DNA of 32,000 bases from an uncultured Methanobacteriaceae archaeon (GTDB lineage Archaea > Methanobacteriota > Methanobacteria > Methanobacteriales > Methanobacteriaceae). A program made the position numbers and the translations under genes. The stretch covers positions 733,983-765,982 of the forward strand of contig CAVXVI010000001.1 of NCBI GenBank assembly GCA_963765255.1, written 5' to 3'. Below the pieces are notes generated by a model. It was not told the origin of the DNA, did no database searches, and was given only the letters and a program-made list of their open reading frames with translations. Of this stretch, positions 13,127-22,565 are shown piece by piece; positions within the stretch are counted from its first letter, which is position 1; each line of letters starts with the position of its first letter.

Positions 13127-13501
13127 TTATTTATTTGATTTTTTGTTCGGTTTATCTTTATGAGAATAGTAACCCTTTAAATATGTAAGTCCATGAAATG
13201 TTTCTTCCAACGACTTAAATTCACCATACTCTTCACTGATAACTATAACATGTGCTGGTGGGTGTATCTTCCTGATGTGGACAATACTTTTAGTTGTATC
13301 ATCTTCAACACGGACAAGCACGGCTATATCTGATTTTGATCTTACTTCTTGTCTAAGAATCTTACTTGCAATTTCGTCAGCTTTTCTTGAGTTTATTATT
13401 CTAGGTTTACCAGCGACTTTCAGTCCAGCATGTCGTTCAATGTCTGCTAAAGTATTCAAAAGTTTGCCTTGATCTTCAGCACGTATTAAAATTAAAGCCA
13501 T
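13127..13501 (-). CDS. Small cytoplasmic protein of unknown function; last gene of the co-directional cell-wall block
   Basis: 124-aa ORF with an ATG preceded by a strong GAAGGAG RBS at 7-8 nt. There is no signal peptide or TM segment, and the C-terminal tail is lysine-rich. I do not recognise the family. Confidence 0.6.
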   Translation of the reverse strand: MALILIRAEDQGKLLNTLADIERHAGLKVAGKPRIINSRKADEIASKILRQEVRSKSDIAVLVRVEDDTTKSIVHIRKIHPPAHVIVISEEYGEFKSLEETFHGLTYLKGYYSHKDKPNKKSNK

Positions 13502-13619: not shown

Positions 13620-14882
13620 TCATTTCTTTTTGAGGAATGATGATATTAATGTACTTCTAAAGAGAACTAGAATAACTAGTATCAATCCTATTGCTGTTTG
13701 TACATTACCTAAATTGCTCAAATCAGATGAACTTATTGGTAAATTCCATGAAGGAGAGGATTTATTGCCTTGTAGTGGCGTATAGTATACTCCAACTGCT
13801 CTTTGGTTTTCCTTTACATTAATGTCCATAGGTTCTACGTGGTTAACACCTACCAATAGCCCGCTTCCTATAGCTTTATTAATTGAATTAGCTATTGATG
13901 TTGAGCTATAACCATATTTTTCAGTTGATGCTTGTACAATTTCTTGGGTTGTTTCATAAATTCCCGGTGCATCGGTTCCATAAACAGATACAGCTGTTGA
14001 GTTTGTAGTTACTGTGATCGCACTTCGTAGAGCTTCAGTTGCTGTTACTGTAGTTAATGGGGTGCCATCAATAGGACTTGTTTGATAGTTAGCAGCTTCT
14101 GGGAAACCAATACTCCATCCGTTTGGACTTATTTTACTGTAATTTTCATCCATGGGAAATCCAGTTGTATTATAAGCTGTAGGTGTAAACATGTCTCCTG
14201 TTGTTATTCCAGAAACAAGGTTAATTGCTCCTCCTCCATGTTTTTCACCAGCATTTACGGCCACATTTTGAAAAGCAGCTGCAACAACATCTGTTGCAGG
14301 ATAACCGTCCCTTATCATCTCTCCCATTAGTTCAGCTGTTTGAAGACGAACAGCATCTGCTGTACCGTATTGGGGATTACCCGGAGTATTTCTGAGGTGG
14401 ATTATTGCACCACGATCTCCAGGGGGAAGGACTGCCAGACCTCCATCATACGGTGTTATAGTTATTGTACCGTTATTAGAAACAATTATAACATATGCTA
14501 AGAAATAACCTCCCACTGCAGCGCCGATTGTTGGTCCGCCATCCATAACTCTTATTCCTGAAAATCCATTAGCTAAAGTTGCTGCCTGAGCAGCGGTACC
14601 GCCATTTTCAAGACTATTTACTGATGAAACTATGGCACCAAGTCTTGGTGTCTCATTACCTTCACCACCAGACAGTACTGCGAAATGTTTATCCTTTGAC
14701 ATTATAAAAGTCGATTGGAACATATTTTCAGCCCAAGATTGACTTCCTGCAGCTGCACCGTTAGGATCTTTACCTGTTGGATCTGTTATCACTATAACGT
14801 TCATGGTTGCTGATGCGGTGTTTACAACCATTGAGAAAGTTATAAAAAATAAAACAAATCTCATTAAATTTACTCTCTTCAT
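13620..14882 (-). CDS. Exported, C-terminally membrane-anchored surface protein of unknown function (cysteine-free, many N-x-S/T sequons)
   Basis: 420-aa ORF. The N-terminal signal peptide is MKRVNLMRFVLFFITFSMVVNTASA, and the C-terminal hydrophobic anchor plus basic tail is AIGLILVILVLFRSTLISSFLKKK. The ectodomain is rich in Gly, Ala and Thr. Sequons present are NET, NGT, NTT, NYS, NST and NKS. Its start lies 10 nt after the stop of the upstream gene, and the RBS AGGGG overlaps that stop. Confidence 0.75.
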   Translation of the reverse strand: MKRVNLMRFVLFFITFSMVVNTASATMNVIVITDPTGKDPNGAAAGSQSWAENMFQSTFIMSKDKHFAVLSGGEGNETPRLGAIVSSVNSLENGGTAAQAATLANGFSGIRVMDGGPTIGAAVGGYFLAYVIIVSNNGTITITPYDGGLAVLPPGDRGAIIHLRNTPGNPQYGTADAVRLQTAELMGEMIRDGYPATDVVAAAFQNVAVNAGEKHGGGAINLVSGITTGDMFTPTAYNTTGFPMDENYSKISPNGWSIGFPEAANYQTSPIDGTPLTTVTATEALRSAITVTTNSTAVSVYGTDAPGIYETTQEIVQASTEKYGYSSTSIANSINKAIGSGLLVGVNHVEPMDINVKENQRAVGVYYTPLQGNKSSPSWNLPISSSDLSNLGNVQTAIGLILVILVLFRSTLISSFLKKK

Positions 14883-14892
14883 AATTTAGCCC

Positions 14893-15336
14893 CTAATATG
14901 TTCCATTCAGCCCTTTAATTTGGATGTTTGAAAAGTCTTCAACAACATTAACAGTAACTATTCCTGTTTGATTATCGACTTGAACATTTGCTGCATCTAT
15001 CGGAGTTATCTGTGTACCTGGGATGGTAGTTAACAAAACAGCCTGTTGTGCATTACTTATGGCTTCATTTAACGGAACCATACGTTTAGTCGTAACTAGT
15101 GTGTCTCCCTGTATGTAGCTTCCGGATCTAAATCCAACATTAGCTAAACTAGCTTTAATTGAATCTAACGGTACTATATCGTTACCGTGAACTATCACTC
15201 CGGATATTTCGACTCCGTGATTTCCTACATCTGTGGATGATGCATAGGACATATAAGTCATGACTCTTCCTGAAAAAATAAGCATGAAGGCCAGTAATAA
15301 AATAATTAATGTATCTCTCCTAATTTTTATGAACAT
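14893..15336 (-). CDS. Small N-terminally anchored (type II) membrane protein with a POTRA-like ectodomain (FtsQ/DivIB-like pattern)
   Basis: The ORF track gives 14893..15366. I prefer the ATG at 15336 (MFIKIRRD...) because AAGGTGA lies 4-5 nt upstream and an AAATTTATAAATATT TATA-like box lies further upstream. The protein has a short basic N-terminus and one TM segment (LIILLLAFMLIFSGRVM). The ectodomain runs VEISGVIVHGNDIVPLDSIKASLANVGFRSGSYI ... PLNEAISNAQQAVLL ... ITPIDAANVQVDNQTGIVTVNVVE. This fits the beta-alpha-alpha-beta-beta POTRA pattern (I..I.v.Gn..v....i...l....G ... g.l.i.V.E). The POTRA call is pattern recognition only. Confidence 0.6.
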   Translation of the reverse strand: MFIKIRRDTLIILLLAFMLIFSGRVMTYMSYASSTDVGNHGVEISGVIVHGNDIVPLDSIKASLANVGFRSGSYIQGDTLVTTKRMVPLNEAISNAQQAVLLTTIPGTQITPIDAANVQVDNQTGIVTVNVVEDFSNIQIKGLNGTY

Positions 15337-15502
15337 TCTTTCACCTTTAGTGCATTGACTTTGCACTTATAATATTTATAAATTTATTATTTTTACGAAA
15401 TTTTAAAATTAATTGATCTTATCTTTATTGATTAATCTTAATTGTTATAATAGTATGTAAAGTAATAACATAATATGATACTGCCTAAAAACTTTGACAA
15501 TT

Positions 15503-17023
15503 TTATATATCTTTCAATTTGAGAATATTTTCTTTGTATTTGAATGCAGCTTCTCCTAAACAGATTAAAGCATCACTTTTACATTTTAATCCTATTTTAA
15601 CTCCTGCTAACACTTGATCAGAACTTGCTCCAAGCGTGCCTTTTTGGAATTTTTCTGAAGACATGTTAGTAAGTAAGATCTTCCCACTAGAAATATGTTT
15701 ACCATGTTTTTCAGCAGCCTTGCGTGAAGCGAACGATGCGGGGATAATAAAATCTCCGTATTCAATGACATTTTGTAATATTTCCATATCTCCCAATTCT
15801 CCAGATTCTGATGAAACAGTAATAACTACAGTGATGTTATTGTAAACCTTTTTTAACTCCCTAAGAACTGTTTCGATTCCCGCAGGATTATGACCGTAGT
15901 CGAGAATAACATCCATTCCATTGTTATCATACAAGTGTTCAATCCTACCCGGAACACCTTTAAAACTTTTTATAGAAGATAATATTTCATGAATTGGTAT
16001 TTTAAAGAATTCTCTTGCAGCTGCTATTGCTCCAATAGAATTGTAAACATTATGTAGTCCTATTAATTGCATCTCAACTTCTACATCTCCTTCTGGGGTT
16101 TGCAGAGTATAATTTCCATTTGCTTCATCTATATTTTTAGCTAGATAATTTGGTATTGGTCTATTTATTCCGCATTCACAACTGTACTTTCCTGAACCTG
16201 TAATAGTTTCATTTATAATAATCTCTCTTCCACACCAGCATGGCTTTTTACCAATTACTTCAGATGGAGCATCAACACCGAAGGTAATAACTAAACTTTC
16301 CGGGTTTAGCATTCCAAATATAGTAGGATCATCTGAGTTAACAATTAATAATTTGTTTTTGAAGTATTCTATGAATTCCCCTTTAATACCCGCGTAACTT
16401 ATAAAATCAAGGTTTTCATCAAGATGATCAGGGTTTATATTTGTTACAACTCCACACTCTGGTTCGCTACGTTCAACCATTAGTTTAAGATCCCCAACTT
16501 TTCCAAACGTACCTGTTTCAAGAACAGCCACATCTCCACTTAGTCTGGCTTGTAAAGGAGGTATATAGTCAATATTTCCCTGTAAATTCCTAAAACCATG
16601 TTCTGTAGGTTCTAAACCACATTTTCGGCATATATGTTTCAGTAGTGTAGTAGTAGTCGTTTTACCGTTAGTTCCAGTAATACATAATACTGGTTTTTTG
16701 GGCTTAAAACGTTCTAATATGTCCGTTACCGATAAAATATCTTTTTTATATCTTTTAATTTGGTTAAAAAACTCAGATGTTTCCATTAAACTTGGGGGTG
16801 TCACGATATAAGTGGATCTATTAAAAAATGATTCAGGATGTTCTGATAAATCTAATGGTATTTTATAATCGGTTAATGTGTAAAGATAATCGCATTCTTC
16901 CTTTTTATGTAAATCTGTTCCTATTACAGAATAACCACGGTCCATTAACATCCTTGCAATGAGATTTGATACGATTCCACAGATTCCTATTACTCCATAA
17001 ATTTCCGGATTTTCATTATTCAT
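15503..17023 (-). CDS. Mur-ligase family protein, MurC-like N-domain (pseudomurein peptide ligase candidate) with a Cys4 zinc-ribbon insertion
   Basis: 506-aa ORF. The MurC-style N-terminus is [29 protein letters not shown] and the P-loop is [14 protein letters not shown]. Other Mur-ligase motifs are [14 protein letters not shown] and [13 protein letters not shown]...CECG insertion lies at aa 262-284. The start overlaps the upstream gene's stop by 8 nt. Confidence 0.85.
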
Positions 17024-18422
17024 ATTTTTTACAACCTTCTCTGATACCGGACATCATTTTGGTTTTAACATCTTCATAATTAGTAATGGCTCCAGGACCA
17101 ACATGTAATATAATAGATCCTGAATGGGAATGTTTAATAGATAATTCTCCCGCTGTGATCATGTCTTCAACAGGAATTTTAATTGCTGATGATTTTCCTG
17201 CTCCTTGGATTACTTCATTTGCAGCTTCAATATTGAATTTTTTAGTTGTTTCATTATACCCACTACAAATTATTACATTAGCGTATTCTCCGACAACTTC
17301 TCCCACTTTATACTTATCTCGAGGATTTGTACTATCTGGATTGTCTATAATAACAATTAATTCTTGGTTTTGAAAAATTTCAAGTGTTTTAACAAGGCCT
17401 TCAGGAACAAATGCAGCATCAAAATGAACTTCTCTGCCCTTAAAATTTCCGATATATTCCATGTGACCTGCAATTCCTTTAAAACTTTTTAAACCTTTAA
17501 TTATAGAATTTTCGTCCAATCCATACGCAAGTGCTGCAGCAGTAGCTGCAATAGAGTTTTCAGAATAATATCCCAGTAATTTGAAAGATGTTTCAAAATG
17601 ACCCTTGATATTTAAATTGGGTATATCGTACGTTATATCGAATATCCCATCCTTTAATTTCCCATTAACATCACATTTATTATTTTCTTGACAATAAAAG
17701 ATTGTGTCATCCCTTAAATTTTCAAGATAATTGGTACACTGTATACCCGAAACCAAAATTTTACTAGAATCTGCTATAAAAAGTTTACGTGCAACATATT
17801 TCTCCATGGAATATTCAAATTCATCCAGATGATCAGGATAAATATTGGTAATTATTCCGACATTTAAATCAACTTTTGACATGAGCCTTGAAGTTCCATG
17901 GGGAAGCTCAATAACGGCTATATTGTTTATCTTGTGGAGACCATTTACAATCCCATCTACAATAACCTCACTAAGAAGATTTCCCATTCTTGATGAACAA
18001 GTCCATACTTTGTAACCATCATTCTGAAATATATTTGACAAGATATGAGTGGTGCTGGTCTTTCCAAGCGTTCCTGTAATCCCTATTATATCTAATTCCA
18101 ATAGATTGTTTATGACTGTTGAAACATAATCATTGTCTAATATTTCAACTTCTTTATCATTCAATAACTTCCTGATTGGAGAATTTTCAGGTACTGTGGG
18201 TGAAATATAAGCATAATCTACCTTTTCAATACCTAAAGATGCATCTGAACCCAACATCAGTTCTACACCTTCTTCTTCCATTATTTTGAGAGTTTTCTGC
18301 ACCTCTGGTTGAAATTCTTCAAGAACTTTTCTATCAGTTATAATTACTTGATTTCCTGCATGATTAAGGATTCTTCCAGCTGGACGTCCGGCGTTACCTG
18401 CTCCTATTATTATACATTTCAT
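17016..18422 (-). CDS. Mur-ligase family protein, MurD-like N-domain (pseudomurein peptide ligase candidate)
   Basis: 468-aa ORF. The N-terminal Rossmann GxGxxG is [18 protein letters not shown], as in MurD. The P-loop is [15 protein letters not shown] and TNIYPDHLD is present. A GAGGGA RBS sits 8 nt upstream of the ATG. Confidence 0.85.
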
Positions 18423-18666
18423 AATTAATTTCCCTCAAAGAATTTAGTTAAGACTACTCAACAATCTTTAAAACATGATTAAAATTAAATTTATTCACAT
18501 TAATTTATTTATTATTTGTCATAATTTCGATTTTATATATGTTCGTTATGAATTAAATGGATATTCTTTACAACTTATTTATTTGCCATTTATACAAAGA
18601 TTTTAGAAAAAATAGTAATTATAATATTAAATAACTAAAAAGAAACATTAGAGACAGAAAAATCTG

Positions 18667-20184
18667 TTAGTGATTATTTGTATCTAAATTTTTATTTATT
18701 TTCGATATAATTTTGCTTGCAGGATCCATTCCCTGAGCACCTATAAGTAATACAGTGTCGGCTTTTTTTGCAGATTTTAAGGTATATTCCAGTGCAGGAT
18801 ATAAATTTTCAAGATACACACATTCCAATTGGTTTTCCATTAAAGTTTGTAGTACAATATCCATTTCAGTTTGTTTTACAGTGTTGGCACTGTCAACGGC
18901 TTCGGCACTACTTGTCACTATAATACTATGATCTAAACCTTTTAGCCCATTCACAAGTGCTTTGGAATTTAAATCATTTATTGTAGATCCTCTTGAGCCT
19001 CGGATTGCAAATACAACATAGAGGGTTCCTTTACATATCTTAGCAGCACTTCGTATAGTGGCTACTATTCCATCAGGATTGTGAGCAAAGTCATCTATTA
19101 TCAATGGATTTTTACCCAATATGCTGAATCTTCTTTCAAGCTGTTTATAAGAAGATATTCCCTGTTTAATCACTTTCTTATTAATATTTAAAGCTAAACA
19201 AGCATCTATTGCTGCCATGGTATTTTGAAGGAAGTGTTTACTATTAAATGGAAGTTCATCTGTTTTCAGAAATAAGTCGGAGTAGAGATAAATACCATCC
19301 AATTTTAATGTTATATTCTGATAATTAGAACCATTCTCAATACTTCCATGAGATAAAAGATTAATAACATCTCTTTTTTGTATGATCTCTCCCATTTTCA
19401 GAAGCAAAGGATCATCAGAATTTAGAATAGCATATCTTTTTTTTAAATCATTTTTTTCAAATTCAATACTATGTTCTGATATGTTAGATATAGCTTCTAA
19501 AGATCCAAATATCTCATTAAATGTTTCTTCAATAGAATTAACCAGACCTATATGATCCAAACCCACATTTGTGATTACTAATACATTAGGATCTATTGCT
19601 GAAGTCATTAAGTACGCATGATTTTCCATGAGTTTGTCTAACCATCCTTGTACTTCTGAAACTTCTATAACCATAGCTTGAATTGGTTTATTATTAATAT
19701 TTTCGAAATCAGCAATTTGTACTGCCACAACCGGGTCGATTAATGTATTAAATTCGGATTTAGCATCTGTATTAGTATAAGTGTTGTAACCAGCTAAAGT
19801 TAATATCTTGTAGATCATATGTGCTGTTGTTGATTTACCATTCGTACCAGTTACCACCACACGTAAAGATTCTTTAGCAAAAGTTTCAACTGCCCATTTG
19901 AGAGCAAATGCATTGGCAAATTCGATTTTAGGCGTAATTATCAGGGGTAAATTGAGTTTTTTTGATGTTTCAATGGCTTCTGAAGTTGGATTTTGTGTGA
20001 TGATACAAGAAACTTTTTTTTGTGATGCTATGGTAATACCTTTCTCATCAATCCAGTGCCTTATCACAACATCCCCAGGCCTTGCACGATTTAAAAAAGT
20101 GAAGATACCTTTAACAGGTTTTATGTCTCCTATTAAATCCCCCTTAACTTTTTGGGCCAAATAAGATGTAGTAATTTCATTCAT
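18667..20184 (-). CDS. Mur-ligase family protein, MurE/MurF-like N-domain (pseudomurein peptide ligase candidate)
   Basis: The ORF track starts at a TTG at 20265, which overlaps the upstream gene by 58 nt. I prefer the ATG at 20184 (MNEITTSYLAQKVKGDLIG...), preceded by AGGGAT. The MurE/F-like N-domain contains ARPGDVVIRHW...CIITQ. The P-loop is VTGTNGKSTTAHMI, and ITNVGLDHIG and DDFAHNPDG are also present. Confidence 0.8.
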   Translation of the reverse strand: MNEITTSYLAQKVKGDLIGDIKPVKGIFTFLNRARPGDVVIRHWIDEKGITIASQKKVSCIITQNPTSEAIETSKKLNLPLIITPKIEFANAFALKWAVETFAKESLRVVVTGTNGKSTTAHMIYKILTLAGYNTYTNTDAKSEFNTLIDPVVAVQIADFENINNKPIQAMVIEVSEVQGWLDKLMENHAYLMTSAIDPNVLVITNVGLDHIGLVNSIEETFNEIFGSLEAISNISEHSIEFEKNDLKKRYAILNSDDPLLLKMGEIIQKRDVINLLSHGSIENGSNYQNITLKLDGIYLYSDLFLKTDELPFNSKHFLQNTMAAIDACLALNINKKVIKQGISSYKQLERRFSILGKNPLIIDDFAHNPDGIVATIRSAAKICKGTLYVVFAIRGSRGSTINDLNSKALVNGLKGLDHSIIVTSSAEAVDSANTVKQTEMDIVLQTLMENQLECVYLENLYPALEYTLKSAKKADTVLLIGAQGMDPASKIISKINKNLDTNNH

Positions 20185-20207
20185 ATTTATATCCCTTTGA
20201 TAAATAA

Positions 20208-21281
20208 TTAGAATACTCTGTAACCATACAATGTAGCTAAACAAACTAGTAAGGTTGCTCCCCAATAAATTATAATAATTTTCTTCTCAGATAATCCCTT
20301 ATAGTTAAGGGTATGATGAAGGGGTTCTACTGGCAATTTAATAATATGTGCCCTATGAAGAAGGCTAACAATTACTGAAATTATTGGTACAGCAAGTGCT
20401 AAAACCGCAAATAATATTATATCTCCTAAAAATGCAGCAGTAATATATCCTGCTCCGAGGGCAAAAGATCCAGTATCTCCCATAAATATGCTTGCAGGAT
20501 ATTTATTATACACTAGAAAACCAAAACAGGCACCAGCAATTACAATAAAAGGTAATGATCCGTTTGGATTTCCTGTTGATATCACAAATATTGCCGAAGC
20601 AATTGAAGCTATAGCAATTATTCCCGCTGCAAGACCATCCATTCCATCGATAAGATTAACTGAATTTATTGATCCTACAATACCAAATATTATAATTGGG
20701 ATTATGAGTAGTCCTATATTAAATCCTAGTATGGAAGCACCAACAGCTCCTGAAGCTATAAGAAATAAAGAAACTAGTATCTGTGCGGAAATCTTTTCGT
20801 TTTCTTTTATTTCACTTTTTATTGGTGCTTCACCAGTTATCTCGACTAAATTATTTTTTAAGAGATATTCTAAGTCTTTTTTAGCTTTAGGTGTTGTTAC
20901 TCTAGCATTTTCACCAGTTTTAAGAGTTAATCTACCAATTTCTACTTCTTTTGGACTTATATTCCTTATAACTTTTTGAATTTCCTTTGTTTTGAGTCCT
21001 ATAAGATCATCCATCAATCCAACGATTCCAGCGACCATCATGATAATTACTGTTAAAACAAGGTTTTTATCAGCGTAAAAAATACATGCAAGTAGAAGAA
21101 CTCCCATTAATATGGCAAGTCCTCCCATGGTAGGTGTTCCTGCTTTATGACTATGTTCTGTGACTATTGGATTATCTTTAACATCTGCATATTTCAACAT
21201 CTTCTTGACAAAAAGTGTGAAAAATGCTGTAGCTATGAATGTGAGTAAGAATATGAAAACTTCAACTTGAATATTGCTCAA
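20208..21281 (-). CDS. MraY-like polyprenyl-phosphate phospho-sugar(-peptide) transferase (PNPT/GT4 family)
   Basis: 357-aa polytopic membrane ORF. It has a TTG start with a GGTGAT RBS 3 nt upstream of the TTG (5 nt from the GGTG core) and no nearby in-frame ATG. Motifs are GLMDDLIG (DD), NSVNLIDGMDGLA (NxxNxxDGxDGL), FMGDTGS and the His loop PVEPLHHTL, which is MraY-type rather than WecA/AglH-type. Confidence 0.88.
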   Translation of the reverse strand: MSNIQVEVFIFLLTFIATAFFTLFVKKMLKYADVKDNPIVTEHSHKAGTPTMGGLAILMGVLLLACIFYADKNLVLTVIIMMVAGIVGLMDDLIGLKTKEIQKVIRNISPKEVEIGRLTLKTGENARVTTPKAKKDLEYLLKNNLVEITGEAPIKSEIKENEKISAQILVSLFLIASGAVGASILGFNIGLLIIPIIIFGIVGSINSVNLIDGMDGLAAGIIAIASIASAIFVISTGNPNGSLPFIVIAGACFGFLVYNKYPASIFMGDTGSFALGAGYITAAFLGDIILFAVLALAVPIISVIVSLLHRAHIIKLPVEPLHHTLNYKGLSEKKIIIIYWGATLLVCLATLYGYRVF

Positions 21282-21428
21282 AATATCACCTTTAAATTGT
21301 TTTATAAGAATGGAATCATTTTGAAATATAAATGCAGTTAACTATTTATATATACCATTTCTTATGTATCCTTTTATTATACAGGTTCCCTTTAATTTTA
21401 TTCTAATGTATAATCTTATCTTCAAGTT

Positions 21429-22565
21429 CTATTTTAAAATTTTTAGATCTTTAGATATTTTAATGGCTTTTGCCATTGTTTCACCGCGTATTGTTATACG
21501 TTCATAATTTTTAGGTCCATGAATGATCCAAGAATTTTTATTGGGAAATTCCCTGAATTTATGATTGTTTTTATTTGAAGGATAACTACCGACTGGTATC
21601 TCTATTGCAGAATAATGTTTAATTTTATCTTTGAGTTTTGAAGCATCCCAGTACCCTGTTGCCATATCAATTAGTTCATGCATTATATTTACACCCGTTG
21701 CGGCATTTGTGATATATCTTGTACCGCTGGGTCTGGCATTTATTTCTATAACATTATTTTCTTGTGTTTTAGTGTTAAATATAATATCAATATCTGCTGT
21801 ACCCTCTAATCCTATTTTATTTGCAATGTCTATAGCAATTTTTTGAATTTTGCGATTATTTTCTTTGTTATTAATGTCCTTTATTTCTAATGGGGCTTTT
21901 TTAATCTTTTCCAATGGATGGATACATTCTAATGTAGTTTTTCCTTTATAAACAGGAACTAATGGCACTGTTTTCCCATTCCATCTTAAGACTTCTATGG
22001 AAATTTCAGAACCAGCAATAAATTTTTCAGCTACACCATTTTCAAATAAAGGGAAATATCTATCTGAATCGTTTATGGAAGATACTATCTTTATTCCGGA
22101 TCCACCTTGTCCTTCTATTTTTTTTAAAACCATTGGTTCATTGTTTTTTATTTTTTGTTGAACCATTTTATAATCATTCTTTGTTATTTTAAAATATTCC
22201 GGAGTTTTAATATTATTTTTTACAAAAAATTCTTTGGTTTTAAATTTGTCTACACATGTTTTAGCTGCAAAAACAGGAGATGCTACTACAGGGATTCCAT
22301 AATCCTCTTCTAACTTCTTTTTCATAATAGCTACTTCAACAAGAGGTCCATCAATCCCTATTAATGGAACAACTCCATCTACTTCTTCTTGAATGGCAAT
22401 TTTCATTGGTTCATCCATTCCTCTTGAAACAATATAATTAGAATCAGCTAGTTTCAAGTTGGGAGATTGGGCATTTGATTCGGATATAATGCTCGTTATA
22501 GAATTTTTTTTGGTGTAGAGTGCTACATCATCAAATAGACGAGCCCCTATAAACAAGATTTTCAT
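21429..22565 (-). CDS. ATP-grasp enzyme, CarB-like single ATP-grasp module (pseudomurein-cluster 'CPS-like' ligase candidate)
   Basis: 378-aa ORF. VIEINARPSGTRYITNAATGVNIMHEL aligns by eye with carB in this same window ([26 protein letters not shown]). It also has the glycine-rich loop KKIEGQGGSGIK. It is the first gene of the co-directional block. Confidence 0.8.
   Translation of the reverse strand: MKILFIGARLFDDVALYTKKNSITSIISESNAQSPNLKLADSNYIVSRGMDEPMKIAIQEEVDGVVPLIGIDGPLVEVAIMKKKLEEDYGIPVVASPVFAAKTCVDKFKTKEFFVKNNIKTPEYFKITKNDYKMVQQKIKNNEPMVLKKIEGQGGSGIKIVSSINDSDRYFPLFENGVAEKFIAGSEISIEVLRWNGKTVPLVPVYKGKTTLECIHPLEKIKKAPLEIKDINNKENNRKIQKIAIDIANKIGLEGTADIDIIFNTKTQENNVIEINARPSGTRYITNAATGVNIMHELIDMATGYWDASKLKDKIKHYSAIEIPVGSYPSNKNNHKFREFPNKNSWIIHGPKNYERITIRGETMAKAIKISKDLKILK

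Follow-up and report, generated by a model that had tools for sequence, protein, structure and literature searches.

What acts on the outer face of the membrane when a methanogen builds its pseudomurein wall, and whether such a factor is related to the bacterial wall machinery, is the question raised by a short minus-strand gene in the DNA studied here, a 32,000-nucleotide (nt) stretch (the window) of contig CAVXVI010000001.1 from an uncultured Methanobacteriaceae archaeon (assembly GCA_963765255.1). Mur-type ligases build the peptide stem of pseudomurein, an MraY-type transferase places the wall precursor onto its lipid carrier in bacteria, and the cytoplasmic steps of pseudomurein synthesis, performed by pMur ligases and MraY, share ancestry with the bacterial murein pathway. 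We know of no outer-face pseudomurein transglycosylase, transpeptidase or scaffold that has been identified. The enzymes for extracellular cross-linking have not been identified, and transglutaminases have only been postulated (Subedi 2021, PMC10117817). An earlier note on this DNA had read the gene in question as encoding an FtsQ/DivIB-like POTRA protein. Our analysis indicates that its product, Mfer763, is not an FtsQ/DivIB member, that its modelled ectodomain very probably has a POTRA-like fold, and that it may, with the chances about evenly balanced, serve as the POTRA-type adaptor of an outer-face pseudomurein enzyme, the neighbouring Mfer764.

The open reading frame (ORF) was confirmed at 14893-15336, with a product of 147 amino acids (aa), and the existence of the gene is confirmed far beyond chance because it has 531 homologous clusters, a full-length match to a curated NCBIfam model and conserved synteny in 80 of 80 loci. 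The model, NF053641 "Mfer763 family protein", was matched at 2.3e-66 with 222.2 bits against a cut-off of 170 bits, residues 1-138 of the protein aligning to positions 1-137 of its 137. By this sequence match the window protein is a member of an already catalogued, unannotated family specific to pseudomurein methanogens, from which it does not differ in either cluster position or taxonomic restriction. Mfer763 and Mfer764 were named by Subedi 2021 (PMC10117817), where Mfer763 is the 'Con Pro' of Gene Cluster 2; in Léonard 2025 (PMC11915815) the two proteins are OG0001162 and OG0001472, "devoid of known domains", and OG0001162 is Mfer763 by gene order. The conservation of a protein without known domains was thus described in both studies, and the conservation beside Mur-like genes that the earlier note expected, which holds in Methanobacteriales (80 loci) and in Methanopyrus, is already published, as is the confinement of the family to pseudomurein methanogens. 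In the literature searched, neither a POTRA domain reported for Mfer763 nor a paper tying a POTRA or N-terminal nucleophile (Ntn) fold to either gene was found, and the fold assignments given below appear new to the literature.

The predicted POTRA-like ectodomain of Mfer763

The structure of Mfer763 was predicted with AlphaFold2 from a 35-sequence alignment that included Methanobacterium, Methanobrevibacter-type and Methanopyrus members with identities down to 32%. The model has a mean predicted local distance difference test score (pLDDT) of 81, rising to 87-93 in the ectodomain, and consists of a membrane-segment helix (residues 7-33) followed by β1 (46-50), α1 (57-67), a small β-hairpin region (73-88), α2 (89-101), β2 (113-120) and β3 (126-133). 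This β-α-(hairpin)-α-β-β order agrees, apart from the added hairpin, with the β-α-α-β-β signature claimed in the earlier note, whose three quoted peptide stretches were all found in the translation and fall on β1 plus α1, on α2, and on β2 plus β3. The hairpin insert carries the invariant T82 and is longer than the loop at this position in the BamA alignments.

When the model was searched against the PDB with Foldseek, POTRA proteins made up most of the top 50 matches. The comparison with FtsQ suggested in the earlier note placed FtsQ of the FtsBLQ complex (8hhf_Q) at rank 1, with E = 7.6e-3 and probability 0.99, over 127 columns at a root-mean-square deviation (rmsd) of 6.5 Å. Other matches were BamA 2v9h (probability 1.00, 3.5 Å over 92 columns), BamA 6lyr (2.7 Å over 93 columns), POTRA1 of TamA (TM-score 0.52 on the target), CdiB, Sam50 and cyanobacterial Omp85. 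The remaining few were Dot/Icm type IV secretion system components at 15-19 Å, which were probably driven by the long helix.

Sequence comparison reached the same domain family. Searched against all PDB sequences, the family profile matched Haemophilus influenzae BamA at E = 3.1e-3, and with Methanopyrus added the BamA match improved to E = 1.2e-4; 11 of the 12 PDB matches listed for the Methanopyrus-inclusive profile were BamA, all at POTRA2, and FtsQ was absent from them. One profile-BamA alignment spans residues 43-120, and hhalign against an alignment of the five Escherichia coli BamA POTRA repeats gave a probability of 63% (E = 7e-5) over β1-α1, with the POTRA hallmark motif I-x-I-x-G-N...G among the matched residues and at the equivalent place in the structure. 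Against E. coli FtsQ, hhalign gave a probability of 0.1%, an uninformative value since the template was a single sequence and not a profile. Profile searches of the kind proposed by the earlier note yielded the weak BamA POTRA2 match and no match to POTRA_1 (PF08478) or FtsQ_DivIB_C (PF03799), even at E <= 10 in 35 members. We regard the sequence signal to BamA-type POTRA as weak and marginal, though corrected for database size; it is consistent with the structure search, and points to an Omp85-type rather than an FtsQ-type POTRA.

Several results weigh against a POTRA relation. No Foldseek match of Mfer763 to the PDB reached E <= 1e-3; the TM-scores were modest at 0.38-0.40 when normalised on the full 147-residue query, about a third of which is transmembrane (TM) helix and tails; and the models of both Mfer763 and Mfer764 come from shallow 35-sequence alignments. 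A Pfam scan of the window protein and the family consensus gave no match, PF07244 appeared weakly in 2 of 35 members (best E = 0.021) and its gathering threshold was not reached by the window protein, and the BamA sequence match covers mostly β1-α1, about 35-45 residues. The likeness could accordingly be convergent, Mfer763 being a lineage-specific small α/β domain that shares neither ancestry nor β-strand augmentation with bacterial POTRA and that does no more than help Mfer764 to mature or stay stable, or else plays an unrelated part in the wall. The hairpin insert unmatched by the BamA alignments, and the outcome of an exhaustive HMMER search with the family profile, whose 28 matches among 1.84 billion representative proteins were Mfer763 family members or fragments only with no bacterial relative, would both suit such an origin, and a de novo archaeal origin has been suggested for Mfer763 (Subedi 2021, PMC10117817). 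However, the structure and the sequence profile are two independent methods that arrived at one domain family, the sequence signal rises with the diversity of the profile, and the hallmark motif sits where the structural match places it; we consider convergence unlikely, and Mfer763 may be distantly related to POTRA domains. The opposite possibility, that Mfer763 is a true FtsQ/DivIB orthologue, namely a divisome hub that ties the FtsZ ring to septal wall synthesis and was inherited or transferred with the Mur genes, draws on the rank-1 Foldseek match, whose 127 columns perhaps take in the TM helix as well as the POTRA domain, on the predicted bitopic N-in layout in which the TM helix leads straight into the POTRA domain, and on a gene position after Mur ligases that recalls murC-ddl-ftsQ of E. 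coli. In FtsQ, the C-terminal β domain is the part that binds FtsB/FtsL, whereas Mfer763 ends about 12 residues after its POTRA-like domain and leaves no room for an FtsQ_DivIB_C domain; the 6.5 Å deviation and the PDB profile matches to BamA but not FtsQ also speak against orthology, and a cytoplasmic stub of 8 residues is too short for reaching the ring machinery. PSI-BLAST found no FtsL, FtsI, FtsW or FtsQ orthologues in these methanogens (Subedi 2021, PMC10117817), ftsZ lies outside the pseudomurein cluster (PMC9871819), and no ftsA or ftsZ was present among the window ORFs scanned, where no dedicated search for FtsL/FtsB or dcw (division and cell wall) partners was made. Because the β domain and a POTRA_1 match are lacking, as are FtsL/FtsB partners according to Subedi 2021, and the stub is so short, we do not place Mfer763 in FtsQ/DivIB, and orthology appears very improbable.

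The POTRA-like reading of the ectodomain leaves a further choice, namely whether the N-terminal helix anchors it or is removed. Prediction recovered the layout described in the earlier note: the stub owes its basic character to K4, R6 and R7, a single hydrophobic helix comes next, and an ectodomain of some 110 aa follows. Among Methanobacteriaceae, K4 and R7 do not vary, and R6-R7 is RR in Methanopyrus too. Mean pairwise identity by segment was compared among 81 Mfer763 and 72 Mfer764 sequences. In Mfer763, residues 1-34 reach 0.82 and the ectodomain 0.67, whereas in Mfer764 the leader (residues 1-25) has 0.37, the mature Ntn domain (26-220) 0.67 and the C-terminal TM segment 0.75. Since the Mfer763 helix is conserved above its ectodomain, unlike the evident leader of Mfer764, it is rather probably retained as an uncleaved membrane anchor. 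The alternative is a secreted, soluble POTRA-like wall protein, whose Sec or Tat-like (twin-arginine translocation) RR leader is cleaved, so that the roughly 110-aa domain acts freely within the pseudomurein, where it might for example bind the wall or serve as a chaperone. SignalP gave OG0001162 a cleavable Sec signal peptide and 0 TM segments (Léonard 2025, PMC11915815), and this result weighs against retention, as does the short hydrophobic core of about 13 residues followed by an A-S-S motif, the conserved A32-S33-S34, which resembles a signal-peptidase site; the conserved R6-R7 would fit a leader as well, and R24 could be a basic c-region residue. Against secretion stand the excess conservation of the segment, the invariance of G23, R24 and Y28 across members as distant as Methanobacterium and Methanopyrus (overall identity about 33%), and the prediction of residues 7-33 as one continuous helix, and we judge secretion to be quite unlikely, somewhat more so than convergence of the fold. 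A retained helix would make specific membrane contacts, plausibly with the constrained C-terminal helix of Mfer764.

Both helices are built of about 13 hydrophobic residues in a row, then an invariant Arg (R24 in Mfer763, R409 in Mfer764), then a semi-polar stretch, and the conservation of both above their ectodomains suggests specific helix-helix contacts or contacts with the lipid-linked precursor. The n-region also contains a conserved twin arginine (IRRDTL; SRRNLV in the Methanopyrus member P0131, residues 17-24), which, together with the basic R24 behind the hydrophobic run, bears a faint likeness to a Tat signal. A type IV pilin-like (class III) signal peptide was rejected, for R-R-D is followed by TLIILLL with no G/A at -1, and there is no pilin among the Foldseek matches.

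The partner Mfer764 and the pseudomurein cluster

In 80 of 80 loci, Mfer764 lies directly 3′ of Mfer763 and is read from the same strand, and the two genes are also adjacent in Methanopyrus. Measured between the stop codon of Mfer763 and the start codon of Mfer764, the median gap is 10 nt (10 nt in the window), with 59 of 70 loci at <=14 nt and overlapping stop and start codons in 16 of 70; by these short gaps and overlaps the two genes are translationally coupled, which suggests that both products are made at a fixed proportion. The gene on the 5′ side varies among the 80 loci, being pMurC in some and pMurE in many. Therefore, the earlier note's placement of the gene directly after a MurC-like ligase is correct for the window, but the conserved neighbour is Mfer764 and not pMurC.

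The AlphaFold2 model of Mfer764 has a mean pLDDT of 74, with residues 27-220 at 85-96. Its 7 Foldseek matches in the PDB at E <= 1e-3 were Ntn hydrolases without exception, led by a circularly permuted Taspase-1 (4.7e-6, probability 1.00) and including 20S proteasome β subunits, and weaker matches were HslV, Anbu, bile-salt hydrolase, penicillin V acylase, the glutaminase domain of GlmS, DUF1028 and glycosylasparaginase. An Ntn-hydrolase fold is therefore predicted for Mfer764. A25, T26 and N28 show no variation among the Mfer764 sequences (72 of 72 for each), one of A, S, V or I occupies position -3, the equivalent Methanopyrus site reads ASA followed by TFN, and the first strand (residues 27-32) comes directly after A25-T26, with the Thr26 codon at 14805-14807. 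A signal-peptidase cut after the A-x-A would leave Thr26 as residue 1, in the position of a Thr-Ntn nucleophile and with no need for autoproteolysis; the permuted Taspase-1 starts at its nucleophile, so its rank as best match fits the Mfer764 topology. The C-terminal TM helix, more conserved than the protein's own ectodomain, has invariant Q395, T396, G399, F408, R409 and S410.

Between these segments, Mfer764 residues ~251-271 (14070-14130, minus strand) are the site of a zinc-ribbon-like CxxC...CPxC motif. It is kept in Methanopyrus (L083:9476-10726) and in some Methanobrevibacter-type sequences, all four Cys being present in 6 of 72, partly lost in others (CCCD in 14 and CDCD in 13 sequences) and wholly lost in the window (SNSD), a pattern suggestive of a metal site in decay on a predicted extracytoplasmic domain. 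Because viruses of Methanobrevibacter smithii encode an annotated Ntn hydrolase (PMC11375127), a viral link was checked for Mfer764, and the BFVD viral fold search returned nothing significant.

The window holds the complete pseudomurein Gene Cluster 2 on one strand, in the order Ddl-MraY-pMurE-pMurD1-pMurC-Mfer763-Mfer764 (Table 1). The Mfer763 start is the ATG at 15336, as MFIK begins all homologues, and it is preceded by the Shine-Dalgarno-like AAAGGTGA; the TATA-box-like TTTATAAATATT, in the 166-nt gap after pMurC, makes a promoter of its own possible for Mfer763. A GTG start at 15366 (157 aa) in the mechanical ORF list was rejected, as it lies between AAAGGTGA and TTTATAAATATT and the homologues start at MFIK. 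For pMurE, the ORF listed at 18667-20265 (minus strand) has a TTG start that overlaps MraY by 58 nt, and the NCBIfam pMurE model matches only from residue 36, so translation probably starts at the internal ATG near 20187 (MNEITTSY...). Just 3′ of Mfer764, at 13127-13501 on the minus strand, lies a gene for a protein of the uncharacterised family DUF356 (PF04009, 4.3e-38), which follows Mfer764 in almost every one of the 80 related loci, though not in Methanopyrus, and which may be a further conserved cluster member in Methanobacteriaceae.

Table 1. Positions in the window of Mfer763, Mfer764, their predicted segments and the upstream cluster genes
Feature	Positions	Strand	Basis
Mfer763-family CDS (coding sequence), 147 aa, TAG stop at 14893-14895	14893..15336	-	NF053641 full length; 531 homologues; start from ribosome-binding signals and homologue alignments
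Mfer763 basic cytoplasmic stub MFIKIRRD (predicted), residues 1-8	15313..15336	-	positive-inside rule
Mfer763 conserved hydrophobic helix, residues 9-33	15238..15312	-	AlphaFold2 helix 7-33; invariant columns; pairwise identity
Mfer763 POTRA-like ectodomain (predicted), residues 42-135	14932..15213	-	pLDDT; Foldseek; family profile; hhalign
Mfer763 β-hairpin insert of ~17 residues at the α1/α2 junction, residues 72-88	15073..15123	-	DSSP strands 73-76, 79-81, 86-88
Mfer763 variable C-terminal tail, no second domain after it, residues 136-147	14896..14931	-	pairwise identity 0.38; pLDDT <50 at 144-147
Shine-Dalgarno-like AAAGGTGA, 4 nt 5′ of the Mfer763 ATG	15341..15348	-	read from coding strand
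TATA-box-like TTTATAAATATT, ~40 nt 5′ of the Mfer763 ATG	15371..15382	-	read from sequence
Mfer764-family CDS, 420 aa, invariant 3′ partner	13620..14882	-	NF053642 at 6.1e-194, full length
Mfer764 Ntn-hydrolase-fold domain (predicted), residues 26-220	14223..14807	-	pLDDT 85-96; Foldseek
Mfer764 C-terminal TM helix and basic tail (predicted), residues 393-420	13623..13706	-	AlphaFold2 helix 395-416
pMurC, pMurD1, pMurE, MraY_archaea and Ddl_archaea, upstream of Mfer763	15503..22565	-	NCBIfam equivalog matches, all above cut-offs
pMurC, directly 5′ of Mfer763	15503-17023	-	NF053645, 1.4e-223
Ddl_archaea	21429-22565	-	NCBIfam

In Methanopyrus the order is Mur ligase, ATP-grasp, MraY-like, Mur ligase, Mfer763, Mfer764 and a polytopic membrane protein, with the start codon of Mfer763 and the stop codon of the preceding ligase gene overlapping. 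The last of these (L083:10728-11837, Methanopyrus sp. SNP6, CP019436), directly 3′ of Mfer764, encodes a 369-aa protein that has no Pfam match; this protein, which corresponds to OG0000796 in Léonard 2025 and is confined to pseudomurein archaea, could be a membrane partner of the Mfer763/Mfer764 pair, for instance as a polymerase or flippase candidate.

The family itself is narrowly distributed. All organism names attached by their sources to the 531 homologous clusters are Methanobacterium or Methanobacteriaceae, a homologue search with the Methanopyrus member as query gave 5 sequences, and GTDB species genomes gave 149 Mfer763 matches, of which the 80 kept for locus analysis are on Methanobacteriales-type assemblies throughout. 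One locus (L044, JBNGDB010000017.1) is labelled 'Methanomicrobiales archaeon', yet it carries a full pseudomurein cluster and its Mfer763 is 67% identical to the window protein, which suggests that a Methanobacteriales contig was wrongly assigned or binned. Three database relatives (P0126, P0132, P0135) have foreign N-termini joined to the C-terminal half of the Mfer763 domain, one of them methyltransferase-like with a VIEIGPGKG motif; rather than true domain fusions, they are most likely chimeras created on short contigs by assembly or gene calling.

A proposed outer-face pair and its relation to known systems

Based on these findings, we propose that Mfer763 and Mfer764 may form a membrane-anchored complex on the outer face. 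Mfer763 would be a type-II (N-in, C-out) membrane protein of small size whose outer domain has the POTRA-like fold plus β-hairpin, and Mfer764 would be exported, anchored at its C-terminus and left by signal peptidase with the invariant Thr as residue 1. The POTRA domains of FtsQ and BamA bind partners or substrates by β-strand augmentation, and the complex could be held together by the two highly conserved TM helices, possibly helped by such augmentation on the POTRA sheet. Mfer763 would then be a non-catalytic adaptor that positions or regulates the Thr-Ntn enzyme on the lipid-linked pseudomurein precursors made by MraY, in late peptide processing or cross-linking, where Mfer764 might make or trim amide bonds of the peptide stem. 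A transpeptidase role is attractive as a speculation because γ-glutamyltranspeptidase is a Thr-Ntn enzyme and pseudomurein contains γ-Glu and ε-Lys bonds. The strongest form of the proposal, that the pair is the missing outer-face cross-linking or maturation machine, a Thr-Ntn transpeptidase steered by a bona fide homologous POTRA adaptor, is doubtful; if true, POTRA-mediated wall assembly would be common to murein and pseudomurein systems, and would either predate their split or have moved together with the Mur/MraY genes.

The predicted folds turn two conserved "hypothetical" genes at the end of the core cluster into concrete candidates for outer-face assembly, with residues that can be tested (T26 of Mfer764; G23, R24, Y28, R70 and the PGT motif of Mfer763). 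Inhibitors for methane mitigation could plausibly be aimed at the pair with specificity, as the family occurs only in pseudomurein methanogens, among them Methanobrevibacter of the rumen and gut. The earlier note knew of no POTRA-type adaptor in archaea, and no archaeal POTRA report was found in the literature searched, where Mfer763 would stand as the first such domain reported.

A single POTRA-like domain on a cytoplasmic-membrane anchor is the architecture of neither FtsQ nor the Omp85 proteins, and its pairing with an Ntn-fold enzyme matches no described system known to us. With FtsQ/DivIB, Mfer763 would share, if its helix is retained, the bitopic N-in layout and the POTRA-type domain right after the TM helix, and it shares the gene position after Mur ligase genes and the top structural match, but it is about half the size of FtsQ, is without the β domain, any reported FtsB/FtsL partners, an FtsQ sequence signal or ftsA/ftsZ neighbours, and has an Ntn-hydrolase-fold protein as its conserved partner. 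With the POTRA domains of Omp85/BamA (PF07244), and especially BamA POTRA2, which gave the best sequence-profile matches beside many Foldseek matches, it shares the predicted β-α-α-β-β fold, an I-x-(V/I)-x-G-N start, a G-x-R-x-G loop after α1 and a V-x-V-x-E-(D/G) end. However, Mfer763 is a single domain that ends at residue 147, with no tandem array and no 16-stranded β-barrel, is predicted in the cytoplasmic membrane of a host that lacks an outer membrane, carries the additional ~17-residue hairpin between its helices, and is sub-threshold in Pfam. Among the Thr-type Ntn hydrolases (proteasome β/HslV/Anbu, Taspase-1, glycosylasparaginase and γ-glutamyltranspeptidase), Mfer764 would share the predicted α-β-β-α sandwich and the first strand at an invariant Thr; it differs from them in having no sequence-level family match, in an extra domain of about 160 aa with the decaying Cys4 motif, in a predicted extracytoplasmic location with a C-terminal membrane anchor, and in a putative nucleophile that would be freed by signal peptidase rather than by autoproteolysis.

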